A DNA stretch of 64,000 bases from Patescibacteria group bacterium (GCA_040384565.1 JAZKJC010000023.1:1481-65480); one strand, 5' to 3'; shown: positions 59,153 through 63,423, counted from the stretch's first letter. The notes: generated from the letters alone by a model not told the origin. Numbers and translations: made by a program.

Positions 59153-59554
59153 TTACGCCGTGCTCCTAAGGATGGCGCCAAGAATTTTCATGATTTCAGT
59201 AGCTTCATTCAAGAGCTTCTGTTGAGCGGCTATGAACTCCGGTGGAGCAACCATAACTTCCAGCCACCAAATTGTTTCCCTAGCTTCTTTCTTTGCGATT
59301 TTTATACGCATAGCAAAGTCTTTCTTGCTAAGTGATTCATTAGCCTCAAGATAATTCGCGCCAACAGAACCCGAAGAACGAACCACTTGTTTCCCATCTT
59401 CTATGAATGCTGTTGTCTTAGGCAGCTTACTCACAAAAGAACGAACATCACGCGCAAATAATAACGCACGATCCTCCAGGTCAAACCGTTTCTGATTTCG
59501 TGCTTCGAGTTTCGTATTTGTTTCTGATTTCGTGCTTCGAGTTTCGTATTTCAT
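59153..59554 (-). CDS. Four-helix-bundle protein (23S rRNA IVS protein / Avd-like family)
   Basis: 133 aa; FDLEDRALLFARDV, SSGSVGANYLEANESLSKKDF, KKEARETIWWLEV. The first 22 aa are encoded by flank repeats. The start overlaps the upstream stop as TAATG. Confidence 0.85.
   Translation of the reverse strand: MKYETRSTKSETNTKLEARNQKRFDLEDRALLFARDVRSFVSKLPKTTAFIEDGKQVVRSSGSVGANYLEANESLSKKDFAMRIKIAKKEARETIWWLEVMVAPPEFIAAQQKLLNEATEIMKILGAILRSTA
59488..59551. repeat. 2 x 32-bp tandem repeat (5' flank of cassette, inside its N-terminal codons)
   Basis: GTTTCTGATTTCGTGCTTCGAGTTTCGTATTT occurs twice. It is an imperfect inverted counterpart of 59087-59150, sharing TTTCTGATTTC / GAAATCAGAAA. Confidence 0.9.
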
Positions 59555-60516
59555 TATTGTAGTTCTTTCTCAAGGTTTGGCTGGCGAGCCATACCTTGTC
59601 CCTTTTCTATGACAGGGGCTGATAAATCCGCGAAATTTTTGAGTGGTTGCCGTGTGGCTGTATCTGGGTTATAAGTATCATAATAAAGCTCAATCAACTC
59701 CTGGGTATCCAAGGGCAATCCCTGGATACTGCACTGTTGCAGCCCGCCCAATACGGCCTGTACTCGGTTACGTAATTCATCCTTGGCTTTATTCAAATCC
59801 GCCTCATGAATAGTGACATGTTGCTGCTTATTATTAAGCAAACCCTTAAGCCCGCTAAAAAAGTTTTTGCTTTGTGTCAGGGCTTTAGTGAGATCCGCTA
59901 TCGGGAAATACGGCACCACCACATAAAACTTCTTGTCCATGATGTTGGTTTGCTGTGACAAATCACTAATAAAGCCAATGTAATCCTCCATCAGCAACGA
60001 TAAAAGCATGTTGTCATGTTCTGAGCGGATTTTATCTAAACGGTCAATATAGGGGCGTAAATCTACTTTTTGCGAACGGACAAAAATTTGTACTGGGAAG
60101 TAAAGCGAGTTCAAAAAGCCCTGATAACTATACTCTACGGCTTCGCGTTCCTGTGGACTCATCAGATCAAAATTAATAGATTTAACCATAATCACAGATC
60201 TGAAACTGCCATCATTCATAATGACTATGCCGTCCCTTATCTCGGCGATTTGCAAGGTGTTCTGGGTACTGTTTGGGTTTGATTTGATTGGGGCTACAGC
60301 TGGAGCCAAGCCTTGCATGCCAACAGGCATAGCCGGTTGCATTGGCGTCCCTAGGCTATAACCCTGAGGTTGTTGATAGGCTGGTGGATAGGCTTGAGCT
60401 TGGCCAACTGGGCTTGGCGGTGGCGGTCCATAGGCAGCGTAAGGGTCTGTCGCGACAGGCTGGGGTGCCTGAGCTCCCATCTGCGGGTTATTCTGCGCTT
60501 GTGTATTTGGATCCAT
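59554..60516 (-). CDS. T4SS-cluster protein: Pro/Gln-rich N-terminus plus a domain resembling VirB4 N-terminal regions, no ATPase motifs
   Basis: 320 aa. RSVIMVKSINFDLMSPQEREAVEYSYQGFLNSLYFPVQIFVRSQKVDLRPYI is reminiscent of VirB4-type N-domains. This assignment is tentative. Confidence 0.4.
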   Translation of the reverse strand: MDPNTQAQNNPQMGAQAPQPVATDPYAAYGPPPPSPVGQAQAYPPAYQQPQGYSLGTPMQPAMPVGMQGLAPAVAPIKSNPNSTQNTLQIAEIRDGIVIMNDGSFRSVIMVKSINFDLMSPQEREAVEYSYQGFLNSLYFPVQIFVRSQKVDLRPYIDRLDKIRSEHDNMLLSLLMEDYIGFISDLSQQTNIMDKKFYVVVPYFPIADLTKALTQSKNFFSGLKGLLNNKQQHVTIHEADLNKAKDELRNRVQAVLGGLQQCSIQGLPLDTQELIELYYDTYNPDTATRQPLKNFADLSAPVIEKGQGMARQPNLEKELQ

Positions 60517-60838
60517 CTTTATTCTTTTCCCACCTAAGAAAGTTATAATTACATCTTATTATATCAAGACAGTGAGTTAAGTGCACAGAATAGCCCATTT
60601 ATTAATTTTCAATTTTCAATTTTTCAATTTTCAATCAAGGATCAATGACTCAAATAATCCAAAAATTCGACCTGGAGGAACGGACGGCTCGTTTCGGGGA
60701 AGACGTCATTAAACTTTGTCGAACCATTAAGCAAGATGCTATTACCCGTAGTTTGGTTGATCAAGTCATACGATCGGCGACAAGTATAGGAGCTAACTAT
60801 ATGGAAGCCAATGGCGCGAGTTCTAAAAAGGATTTTCG

Positions 60839-61932
60839 AGGTTATAGGAACTTTCGTGGAGGTTTTGGCTCCTCCGTTCGGCTGTAAAGATACCACTCAA
60901 CCAGCCGTCTTTGGTGTTCTTCGCTCATGCCCCGATGTAGCTTGAGCTTGGTTCTGAGCTGGGAGTTAATACCACCCTCTACATAGTTAGTAGTTCTGGG
61001 GATTGGTTCGGTAGTTAGCGCAGTATCCAGGTAAGTGAATAATTGGTTAGTTTGCACTAGTTTCTCCAGTTGTTTGTAGGCTGAGCGTAAGCCCCTATGG
61101 GTATACCACCAGCGTCTATGACCGCTGGTTGGACTGGCAAAGTAGGTTCGCTCCCGGATGAAGCTACCGTATTGTTCCTGCCATGCCTGGAGACGTTGTT
61201 GCCACTCCAGCGATTGTTGGCTGGTCTTGACCTGCCACAAATCTCTGGTGAGTTGGAGTAGCTCCTGTCCAGCAATGGTTTGCGGATGGAGCGTGAGCTT
61301 AACCCGGATGTTCTGCCAGACATGAAACACACAACGCTGAATCCTGGTCTTTGGCCAGCACCGAACAATAGCCAGCAGGACACCTTTCTGGCCATCACAA
61401 ACGATCACTAAGGGAGCTGGCAGCCTCCCAAGCAGCAGCGACCAGGTATTCCCAGATTCCCAACCGACCCACTGCCAGGCGATAACAGCAGTTGGGGTGC
61501 GGGCTATGAGGCAGACCATACTACCAACTCGGATACCGTCAATGAGGATGATGGGGTATAGCTCACCCGTAACCTCAGGCTTTGGAGCAATCTCCCAGCA
61601 CCAGGCTGTCTGAGACCGCCAGGCGCGGTCAGTTACGCCATGGCCGAGTTCGGTCTGCGATTGTTTACCTAGCAACCAGGATACGAAGCGTTCTAGTACA
61701 AATGCCTGGCTTAAGTCAGCTCGTGGCTTGGTAGCACTGCTGGTGCAGCGCGGGCAATACCATCGTTGAGTGCCAGCAGCCGTTAAGCCACGTTTTTGTA
61801 GTTTCTTGCTGCACGTGGGACAGGCATACTTATAGGCTCTTTTTTCATACCATTAATGTCTCACGACATTAATTAAACACAAATAACAGAGGGGAATTGG
61901 TTAAAAAACCTCCACGAAATTTCCGATTAGCC
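60839..61932 (-). mobile_element. IS element (IS256/Mutator-like transposase) with 8-bp target duplication
   Basis: 1094 bp. Direct repeat GATTTTCG lies at 60831-60838 and 61933-61940. The terminal inverted repeats of about 28 bp are imperfect (..GGAACTTTCGTGGAGGTTTT / AAAACCTCCACGAAATTTCC..). Confidence 0.8.
60842..61848 (-). CDS. DDE transposase (IS256/Mutator-like), N-terminal Zn-ribbon out of frame at an A6 run
   Basis: The main ORF carries VCDGQKGVLLAIVRCWPKTRIQRCVFHVWQN and TTNYVEGGINSQLR. Upstream, the same frame encodes YACPTCSKKL...WYCPRCT. The only ATG (61848) is one frame off, across AAAAAAG (61840-61845). Confidence 0.65.
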
Positions 61933-62167
61933 GATTTTCGTAACAAAGCACATATCTGCAAAAAAGAAGCTCAGGAAACCCAGCACTGGCTCCGTATGCT
62001 AAGTGCCGCTGTACCAGAACATAAAGACGCATTACGCGTCCTGTGGCAAGAGGACCATGAATTCGTACTAATCTTCCAGAAAATAATTTCGAGTTTGAAA
62101 CAATGAAAAATGGTATTTGAATGAAAATTGATAATTGTAAATTGGAAATTCCTTTGCGCTAACTCAC

Positions 62168-62197: not shown

Positions 62198-62611
62198 TTA
62201 GGCCTGGTTGGGGGCTACAGTTTGCAGTAGCGGGACATGATTGAAGTGCCTATCGTTGGTTGCCAAAGTGCAAGTGTATTGTAGGCTCAAGGTTGCGATC
62301 CAGAGGTCATTCGTAGGTATTGGAGTACCCTTAAGAGCCAATTCTGCCCAAAGTCGGGCGTATATTTCTAACGTTTCATGGTTTGGGAATAGAACGGTTA
62401 CTCTTTCTGAAGCTAGAAAAGCATCTAGTTTCGCATAATTTTTAGTCATACGATTGCCTTTTTGAAAGCCAGCCCTTAGCTCGGCTACCACAATAAAAGG
62501 CATCAATATCTCACAACCACCAACCACCATTTCTTTAAGTTTGGTTGCTTTGCCCTCTATGAATTTATCGTATGAGTTAGTGTCAATGCTAACTCTTAAA
62601 TCGTTGGCCAT
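62198..62611 (-). CDS. PIN-domain toxin (VapC-like)
   Basis: 137 aa; SIDTNSY, VVAELRAG, TNDLWIA, LATNDRHF acidic/PIN motifs; overlaps the antitoxin gene. Confidence 0.8.
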   Translation of the reverse strand: MANDLRVSIDTNSYDKFIEGKATKLKEMVVGGCEILMPFIVVAELRAGFQKGNRMTKNYAKLDAFLASERVTVLFPNHETLEIYARLWAELALKGTPIPTNDLWIATLSLQYTCTLATNDRHFNHVPLLQTVAPNQA

Positions 62612-62853
62612 AGCTCTTTGTCAATCTTGTGTTGGGCATCGAACGCCTTTCGTTCCTCGGTGCCAATACCGCCACTGCCATAAAACCAATCAAGGTCGTT
62701 ATAAGTCTTGTTTTTTTCTGCTTGGCCTGTGGCCTGCTGTAGCACTTCCACTATTGTCGCGTTAAAGCTTTGCCCCTGTTTCCGGGCACGCCGGCGCAAA
62801 ACCTTATCAACGGGCTCCGGAATATTACGAATGGTATATTGTATACTACTCAT
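62596..62853 (-). CDS. Ribbon-helix-helix antitoxin (VapB/FitA-like)
   Basis: The likely start is MSSIQYTIRNIPEPVDKVLRRRARKQGQSFNATIVEVL (the track ORF extends to 62892). The beta-strand plus two helices pattern fits RHH. Confidence 0.65.
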   Translation of the reverse strand: MSSIQYTIRNIPEPVDKVLRRRARKQGQSFNATIVEVLQQATGQAEKNKTYNDLDWFYGSGGIGTEERKAFDAQHKIDKELWPTI

Positions 62854-62895
62854 GTAGGCAGTATACATAATATGTATGCATAAGTCAAGCAAAAG

Positions 62896-63045: not shown

Positions 63046-63423
63046 GTGCGGTACAATTGGCTTATGAAAGGACACTCATTTCGGGATATTATTGCGTGGC
63101 AAAAAGCGCATAGCCTTTGTGTCGATATTTATAAAATTTTAGCCAGTAATAAAGATTTTTCTTACAGGGATCAAATACAGCGTGCGGCTGTATCCATAAT
63201 GAATAATATTGCCGAAGGACATTCCAGAAGGAGCGACAAATCGTTCCGAAACCTTCTGCTCATAGCTAAGGGTTCGGCCGCAGAAGTTGAATCTATGCTT
63301 GAACTTGGGAAAAGCTTGGGGTACTTCACCTCAATTCAACACGAAGACCTCACCCAAAGAGTTGACGAAATTTCTCGTCTAATAACTGGCCTGGTTAAAT
63401 TCCTAGAAACCCGCCAGCCCTAG
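63046..63423 (+). CDS. Four-helix-bundle protein (23S rRNA IVS protein / Avd-like family)
   Basis: 125 aa; FRDIIAWQKAHSL, IMNNIAEGHSRRSDKSF, AKGSAAEVESML. Flanked by TGAGAGGTGAG (63009-63019) and CTCATCTCTCA (63442-63452). Confidence 0.85.
   Translation: MRYNWLMKGHSFRDIIAWQKAHSLCVDIYKILASNKDFSYRDQIQRAAVSIMNNIAEGHSRRSDKSFRNLLLIAKGSAAEVESMLELGKSLGYFTSIQHEDLTQRVDEISRLITGLVKFLETRQP

Follow-up and report, generated by a model that had tools for sequence, protein, structure and literature searches.

The window analyzed in this work, a 64,000-nt stretch of DNA from a Patescibacteria group bacterium (GCA_040384565.1; JAZKJC010000023.1:1481-65480), carries an insertion sequence (IS) within a gene for a predicted four-helix-bundle protein. 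This element, referred to below as the window IS, encodes a transposase whose apparent start codon and catalytic body lie in different reading frames, and the present analysis concerns the way in which such an enzyme may be produced. The following features of the element were identified (positions are counted from the first nucleotide of the window).

60839-61932, minus strand: IS element of 1094 bp, IS1249 group of the IS256 family (boundaries as in contig L039; match to NF033544)
61905-61932, minus strand: inverted repeat (IR) at the transposase 5' end, GGCTAATCGGAAATTTCGTGGAGGTTTT, whose core, CGTGGAGGTTTTT, is common to relatives
60839-60866, plus strand: IR at the transposase 3' end, AGGTTATAGGAACTTTCGTGGAGGTTTT
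61852-61873, minus strand: conserved stem-loop, AUUAAUGUC GUGA GACAUUAAU, about -9.3 kcal/mol; by the 10-pair structure of the family, 4 nt separate the stem from the ATG
61846-61848, minus strand: ATG, putative initiation codon, placed just 3' of the conserved hairpin, as is the in-frame ATG of relatives
61840-61845, minus strand: run of six A's (A6), codons 2-3 (AAA AAA), putative -1 recoding site; in relatives L151, L153 and L152 stops close the -1 frame as far as the run or into it
60842-61848, minus strand: putative recoded coding sequence of the transposase, yielding 335 aa if the frame shifts by -1 in the A-run (stop codon at 60842-60844)
61745-61822, minus strand: -1-frame N-terminal four-Cys zinc ribbon (CPTC...CPRC; residues 10-35; NF048018)
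61783-61848, minus strand: short zero-frame ORF read without a shift, MKKEPISMPVPRAARNYKNVA followed by a stop codon, probably a by-product

Public contig L039 (JAWVHG010252734.1; L001-L153 are labels of contigs or loci carrying members of this family) spans exactly the same 1094 bp, the usual mark of an assembler-collapsed repeat, which supports the boundaries of the element. The terminal IRs are imperfect, with a 23-nt core (60844-60866 and 61905-61927) at 91% identity and 23 of 28 positions matching by eye; both the size of the element and the IRs of about 28 bp agree with an earlier note on this DNA. On the minus strand, the 5' IR is followed by approximately 35 nt, the hairpin, TGGT, the ATG, AAAAAA and a G (position 61839).

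The family assignment was made with the 335-aa protein, read with one A added. This protein reached 381.5 bits, where 300 is the cut-off, with the IS1249 family transposase model NF033544 (residues 9-334), and passed PF10551 (MULE; 29.1 vs 27.6) and PF00872 (Transposase_mut; 26 vs 21). Residues 9-36 matched the IS256-type four-Cys N-terminal domain NF048018 (34.2 bits; cut-off 27), and a weak PDB match, to the IS256-family ISCth4 transposase (6xg8), covered the CDG...QRCxxH segment. Motif resemblance points to D104, D152 and E291 as the putative catalytic residues. On all homology criteria tested, the window IS belongs to the IS1249 group of the IS256 family, in accordance with the IS256/Mutator-like motifs recognized earlier. 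The single uninterrupted transposase ORF expected of IS256/IS1249 elements is not found in it; the absence of a contiguous ORF is a feature of expression, not a criterion of homology.

Transposase homologs at 60-77% identity are numerous, those named by source coming from Candidatus Saccharibacteria and Berkelbacteria, and more remote relatives (approximately 40-45% identity) occur in Arthrobacter, Microbacterium and Leucobacter. The window IS shares with IS1249 of Corynebacterium and other Actinobacteria the zinc domain, the Mutator/MULE DDE core, the IRs and an 8-bp target duplication. It differs in residing in hosts of the Saccharibacteria/candidate phyla radiation (CPR) type, in its smaller size (1094 bp, compared with approximately 1.3 kb, which we take to be the length of IS1249 in ISfinder) and in that its transposase is not one contiguous ORF, the start codon being out of frame by -1. 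To our knowledge, the ISfinder entry for the IS1249 group is a single-ORF one without a frameshift. The sources of the homologs make a Saccharibacteria/CPR bacterium the probable host of the window.

The long ORF encoding the zinc ribbon and the DDE core is in the -1 frame with respect to the ATG at 61848-61846. Upstream, the zinc-ribbon frame reads a stop codon followed by WYEKRAYKYACPTC..., and no ATG, GTG or TTG is present in it until the TTG at 61675, past both CxxC pairs; a Cys-rich zinc ribbon lacking a start in the transposase frame had indeed been described. One added A, or a -1 slip, yields the 335-aa protein, which bears out the proposed dependence of the transposase N-terminus on the A-run. 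The ATG does lie in the neighboring frame, as had been reported, but it abuts the run, rather than preceding it by three codons. The codons of the ATG frame are AUG_AAA_AAA_GAG, and the canonical heptamer A_AAA_AAG, previously taken for the slippery run, is out of register; the in-register slippery motif is G_AAA_AAA, i.e. the tetramer A_AAA. The unshifted product comprises 21 aa in the window IS and 10-67 aa in other elements. A length of 21 codons is common because the zero-frame stop sits within the conserved KRGLT codons, and the peptide is most simply viewed as a by-product.

The length of the A-run was verified in independent data. SRR26324625, assembled independently in Logan (L037), contains an identical insertion with A6. 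A second (sibling) copy, also with A6, is present in a Logan assembly of SRR26324626 (L038) and in an NCBI assembly (L039); it differs from the window IS by 4 nt (two beside the ATG, the others at element positions 404 and 548), and the ORF from the first Cys onwards is identical in the two copies. Homopolymers are error-prone on some sequencing platforms, and a sequencing or assembly error concealing a true A7 had been put forward. However, besides the window, A6 is found in three independent assemblies (two from Logan, of different runs, and one from NCBI) and in two copies, as well as in dozens of unrelated Illumina-type metagenome assemblies. The error was therefore rejected, and the probability left to it is negligible.

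The distribution of this layout was determined by a start-neutral scan of metagenome contigs, in which the IR pattern CGTGGAGGTTTTT N12-16 CTGTTA yielded 50 genuine unique 5' ends. The ATG is in frame with the transposase in 26 of these, 19 (approximately 40%) need a -1 shift and five need +1. Among the 19 -1 ends the run is A6 in 16 cases (17 with L040, found separately) and A7, A5-C and AGAAAA in one case each. Exactly 26 nt separate the ATG from the first Cys codon in every one of the 19, and each retains an in-register A_AAN, including the short-run lineages L133 (ATG AGA AAA G) and L089 (ATG AAA AAC); in-frame ATG, GTG and TTG are absent from 16 of them. The fused sequence MKKRAYKYAC aligns with MKQRGFRY-C of in-frame relatives.

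The usual N-terminus of the homologs is MKQRGFRYCPTC. Among the top 120 homolog clusters, 28 are odd: these proteins comprise 317-320 aa from an internal MQKRGKT, or 276-299 aa from a point past the zinc ribbon, or they begin with M[YH]EKR.Y.Y.C. The DNA of the fetched examples of each odd kind always contains the hairpin, 4 nt, the ATG, A6 and, in the -1 frame, an ORF for the zinc ribbon; where MYEKR proteins seem to start at a TTG, this is the spacer read in frame. The odd clusters have been mis-called or shortened as the -1 layout would lead one to expect.

The same spacer bears on the possibility that translation begins at an in-frame non-AUG codon just upstream of the run, with no frameshift. 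An in-frame TTG exists at this position in L040, L041, the L055 group and L085, and gene callers annotate MYEKR or MHEKR starts, but the corresponding codon is TGG in the window IS, TTC in the sibling copy, and TTA, TTT, GTT, ATC or TGT elsewhere. In L151 (approximately 90% identical to the window IS) and L153 a TAG stop occupies this position, the -1 frame being shut by TAA TAG directly before TAT GAA AAA AGA, and in L152, L139 and L144 a TAA in the -1 frame overlaps the first two A's of the run. Since these stops precede or reach into the run, a shift must occur inside it. Furthermore, the next "codon" of the putative upstream start varies at its first base only: all four bases occur 5' of the ATG (T, C, G and A would encode Y, H, D and N, respectively, if read in frame) and the following AT is invariant, which indicates that the ATG is conserved, not an amino acid. 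Initiation of this kind is regarded as very unlikely. A related scenario, the origin of the -1 state by insertion of a G (ancestral ATG TAT GAA plus one G, from an in-frame "WYEKR"), was rejected because relatives have TTG, TTC, TTA, TTT, GTT, ATC or TAG at this site and always retain the out-of-frame ATG.

In the diverged elements L139, L144 and L152, ATT replaces the ATG before A6. Their ORFs are intact (dN/dS, the ratio of nonsynonymous to synonymous substitution rates, of 0.13-0.15), and they could start at AUU and then shift, or be copies that were silenced recently.

Intact ORFs of 313-336 aa are present in 19 distinct -1 elements. The pairwise dN/dS among -1 elements is 0.03-0.20, with dS ranging from 0.9 to saturation (e.g. 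L042/L045 0.06, L071/L104 0.10, L059/L114 0.12, L093/L116 0.12, window/L125 0.14). The zinc ribbon alone (first 50 codons from Cys1), which no in-frame start reaches, gives values of 0.05-0.22 between -1-state elements (0.05 at dS 0.51 for the window IS vs L151). Moreover, within each of the assemblies JABXNS01, Ga0265338, Ga0182021 and Ga0136558, copies of the same -1-state IS have at least four different flanking sequences, and all of these copies carry A6. The low dN/dS and the many sites show that these elements multiplied in the -1 state, and that the whole protein, including its N-terminus, is under purifying selection. Early decay, another explanation offered in the earlier note, is incompatible with an ATG-A6 layout in the -1 frame shared by 19 diverged lineages with intact ORFs, a dN/dS of about 0.1 and many insertion sites.

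These data also bear on a scenario in which the -1 elements are non-autonomous or decaying copies that in-frame relatives, whose ends are similar, mobilize in trans. The IR core CGTGGAGGTTTTT is common to in-frame and -1 elements, some samples contain both kinds (contig L110, for instance, carries one and the other), and truly decayed copies (L002, L057, L084 and L130) are present in the same sample. The lesions of the latter are scattered at random, whereas that of the -1 elements is always at the same site, with 1-kb bodies intact in 19 lineages and a dN/dS of 0.03-0.2 at near-saturated dS, even in the otherwise untranslatable zinc ribbon. Mobilization in trans of defective copies is considered improbable.

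On contig L110 (Ga0265338_10001208; approximately positions 86-181), a -1-state element lies directly beside the IR of an in-frame element, the two IS ends of this family being on opposite strands, back to back. This arrangement suggests nested or adjacent insertions.

The most serious rival to recoding is phase variation at the DNA level, in which the A-run would be a contingency tract, the rare A7 (or G-insertion) alleles being active and the A6 alleles revertibly "off". In its favor, run lengths vary in sister modules (A6 and A7 in the MKKHGF module, A7, which is in frame, and A8 in the MSIKKHGF module), and assemblies, as consensus sequences, can hide minor variants. In-frame variants that a single G distinguishes from the -1 state (ATG GAA AAA AGA; L047 vs L090) also exist and persist, so that the state can toggle over evolutionary time. 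Nevertheless, no ATG-A7-GA was found among 17 A6 5'-end variants and approximately 35 contigs, none of the top 120 clusters has an MKKR.Y.Y.C start, the protein collection searched lacks the exact 335-aa protein, and the copies at at least four new sites all have A6. Phase variation is judged to be unlikely, if the least so of the rival explanations.

The sister 5' modules MKKHGFRYC and MSIKKHGFRYC (L074, L118, L085, L080, L115, L142 and L092/L148) have A-runs of variable length, and most of their sampled copies are +1 out of frame, with A6 (A5 being in frame) or A8 (A7 being in frame); L085 (A7) needs -1. This suggests that their runs are hypermutable or slippage-prone, and the simple -1 ribosomal model does not explain them.

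In a neighbor-joining (NJ) tree, the -1 and in-frame transposase bodies are interspersed (L037/L051, L125/L121, L144/L077, L041/L138), although the two kinds differ in their 5' modules, in hairpin type as well as in the N-terminal 10 aa; the tree, with its states interspersed in this way, gave no clean ancestral-state inference. This pattern suggests that recombination may take place between co-resident IS copies.

The hairpin preceding the ATG has, across the family (L001-L003, L017, L040-L047 and L049-L150 members), a 9-10-bp stem and a 4-6-nt loop, and is situated 2-6 nt 5' of the ATG. Among 34 family 5' ends it covaries: 91.5% of cells are paired, compared to 31-42% in slid controls, and four pairs have changed on both sides, with compensatory changes of UA/GC/CG at one pair and UA/GC at another. 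The in-frame ATG of the MKQRGF group follows the same hairpin, with a spacer of 6 nt in most members vs 4 nt in the window IS. This structure is a candidate for translation control, for a pause or slippage aid, or for a protein-binding palindrome. No Shine-Dalgarno sequence was found between the hairpin and the ATG, and nothing was detected by a sigma-70 promoter scan of the IS 5' end; no Rfam family matched, and a scan of viral contigs gave one unrelated match only. The idea of a leaderless mRNA or of reiterative transcription is speculative. The only long nearby stem, formed by an 18-nt inverted repeat (61697-61714 and 61783-61800), begins approximately 40 nt downstream; it was rejected as a frameshift stimulator, being too distant and showing no covariation with L151 (by eye).

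Once error and decay are set aside, programmed or transcriptional slippage is what remains of the explanations originally proposed, its support being comparative. From this evidence we infer that recoding occurs, and also its possible mechanism and efficiency; an obligatory -1 recoding at codons 2-3, attenuating transposase synthesis, is considered likely. Translation would start at the ATG located 4 nt past the conserved hairpin, and the ribosome would read AAA AAA and, on the A-run, enter the -1 frame, giving MKKRAYKYACPTC... and the 335-aa enzyme; non-shifting ribosomes would yield only the 21-aa peptide. Two routes, both giving MKKR..., may be envisaged. In the first, tRNA-Lys would slip by -1 on A_AAA (G_AAA_AAA), the A-site tRNA-Lys at codon 3 re-pairing perfectly one base back and the P-site tRNA-Lys re-pairing to GAA. 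In the second, RNA polymerase would add one extra A. A small fraction of initiations would then yield transposase, and the A-run would act as a built-in attenuator of transposition.

In bacteria, -1 motifs are governed mainly by cognate A-site re-pairing, and A_AAA is a known but weak tetramer among them (PMC4066793). The ribosomal slip would be favored because the short-run lineages L133 and L089 retain an in-register A_AAN, which fits A-site slippage (PMC4066793), and because four A's are implausibly short for slippage of the polymerase. Polymerase slippage, in turn, is favored by the hairpin located 7 nt before the run and by the sister modules needing +1, and is disfavored by the shortness of A6 and by the equal presence of the hairpin in in-frame relatives. 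According to a 2016 recoding review (PMC5009743), such slippage may alternatively involve a short run if a hairpin of the nascent RNA adjoins it; in the window IS, the run is A6 (A4-A5 in L133 and L089) and the hairpin ends 7 nt 5' of it.

Several observations weigh against obligatory recoding. In Escherichia coli, G_AAA_AAA or A_AAA induces little shifting and, unless a stimulator is present, scarcely exceeds background (PMC4066793), and no convincing downstream stimulatory structure was found: the fold of 61740-61900 is no stabler than those of shuffled sequences (z-score -0.02). Efficient slippage by RNA polymerase usually needs runs of at least 9, as stated in the same review (PMC5009743), and A6 is shorter. 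The hairpin occurs in in-frame relatives too, and hence is not specific to recoding. Five lineages need +1 and three carry ATT, and one simple mechanism is insufficient for these. Finally, the interspersed states in the tree imply either frequent switching or recombination of 5' modules, which weakens ancestral-state arguments.

A broader proposal is put forward with less assurance, the balance tilting only slightly in its favor. A large IS1249-group clade in Saccharibacteria and other CPR would rely on obligatory -1 recoding at codons 2-3, with a conserved 5' hairpin and no Shine-Dalgarno sequence. This would be a first for the IS256 family and a new type of signal, set by the initiation context or the hairpin rather than by a downstream pseudoknot; the unshifted peptide would be a throw-away product and the shift purely an attenuator.

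Recoding-dependent transposase synthesis is known in IS1 and IS3. IS1 (InsAB', -1 shift on A_AAA_AAC) resembles the window IS in its N-terminal zinc finger and in its A-run recoding, and a sub-lineage of the L042 group even has ATG A6 C. The A-run of IS1 has low intrinsic efficiency and no known stimulator, and keeps the transposase scarce (PMC4066793). However, the IS1 shift occurs mid-gene, fuses the regulator InsA to InsB and sets the regulator-to-transposase ratio, whereas the putative shift of the window family is placed at codons 2-3 and the unshifted 10-67-aa peptide is without evident function; the transposase families are unrelated. The IS3 family (IS911, IS150, IS3) likewise needs -1 recoding on a lysine-codon A-run for its transposase. 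There the heptamer A_AAA_AAG is in register and is accompanied by a Shine-Dalgarno-like sequence upstream of it, by a stimulatory stem-loop or pseudoknot 5-9 nt downstream, or by both, in contrast to the window IS, in which only A_AAA is in register and no downstream structure was found. In an IS630-family element of Roseiflexus, slippage stimulated by a nascent hairpin is needed for the transposase (Penno et al. 2015, as cited in PMC5009743). This element and the window IS both have a stable hairpin just 5' of a short slippage-prone run. In Roseiflexus, however, the hairpin abuts T5C5 and one nucleotide is lost, whereas in the window IS the hairpin is 7 nt away and occurs in in-frame relatives as well, and slippage would have to add one A.

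We know of no report of a recoding-dependent transposase in the IS256/Mutator family. Within the literature searched, no paper pairs IS1249 with "frameshift", and the one IS-focused slippage paper that mentions IS256 concerns the IS3-family element IS1447. IS256 and Mutator are not mentioned in the available parts of the 2016 recoding review (PMC5009743). On comparative evidence, the putative recoding layout appears, to the best of our knowledge, to be new for the IS256 family. The known cases join two functional ORFs; a start-proximal shift seems only to make the transposase rare, and, if confirmed, would offer a simple system, provided by nature, in which to study frameshifting, or slippage of the polymerase, just after initiation. 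In practical terms, gene callers mis-annotate approximately one quarter of these transposases (as truncations of 276-281 aa or 317-320 aa, or with spurious TTG starts), which hides the zinc ribbon, and IS censuses of CPR genomes may score active elements as pseudogenes.

Unusual initiation may be a broader trait of the IS1249 group. In IS1249-like copies of Arthrobacter (L004-L016, representing eight loci in strain Hiyo8, and L024), only ATA or CTG occurs between the upstream stop codon and the first CxxC, and an in-frame ATG, GTG or TTG is absent from that interval. A GC-rich hairpin (CTAAGCTT-TGGA-AGCTTAG) is placed just 5' of it.

The gene disrupted by the window IS is represented by the following features.

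60645-60838, plus strand: four-helix-bundle gene, 5' part (TIGR02436 / PF05635)
60831-60838, no strand: left copy of the target duplication, GATTTTCG
61933-61940, no strand: right copy of the target duplication, GATTTTCG
61941-62106, plus strand: four-helix-bundle gene, 3' part

The two copies of GATTTTCG form a perfect 8-bp duplication with a start-to-start spacing of 1102. Deletion of the IS together with one copy exactly restores an ORF of 119 aa, which matches TIGR02436 (four-helix bundle; profile positions 3-109 of 109, 78 bits) and also PF05635. The perfect duplication, the regained host ORF and the sibling copy at 99.6% identity support a recent insertion, as had been concluded before; the disruption of a gene is in itself an ordinary event. 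An exact look-up in the protein collection did not find an empty-site version of the host protein.

The insertion site is a mobile or type-IV-secretion-like region. Three four-helix-bundle genes, paralogous and PF05635-like by sequence resemblance, lie within 4.3 kb: 59153-59554 (minus strand), 60645-62106 (plus strand; disrupted) and 63046-63423 (plus strand). They are interleaved with a TraC-like gene (59554-60516) and a PIN/RHH toxin-antitoxin pair (62198-62892), and contig L037 additionally carries a PrgI-like gene among its four-helix-bundle neighbors. Directly 5' of the disrupted gene (60600-60640), AT-rich ATTTTCA direct repeats occur 4-5 times, and a similar tract rich in AAATTG/AATTG is located directly 3' of its stop codon (62107-62150). 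These flanking repeats may be promoter or operator repeats.

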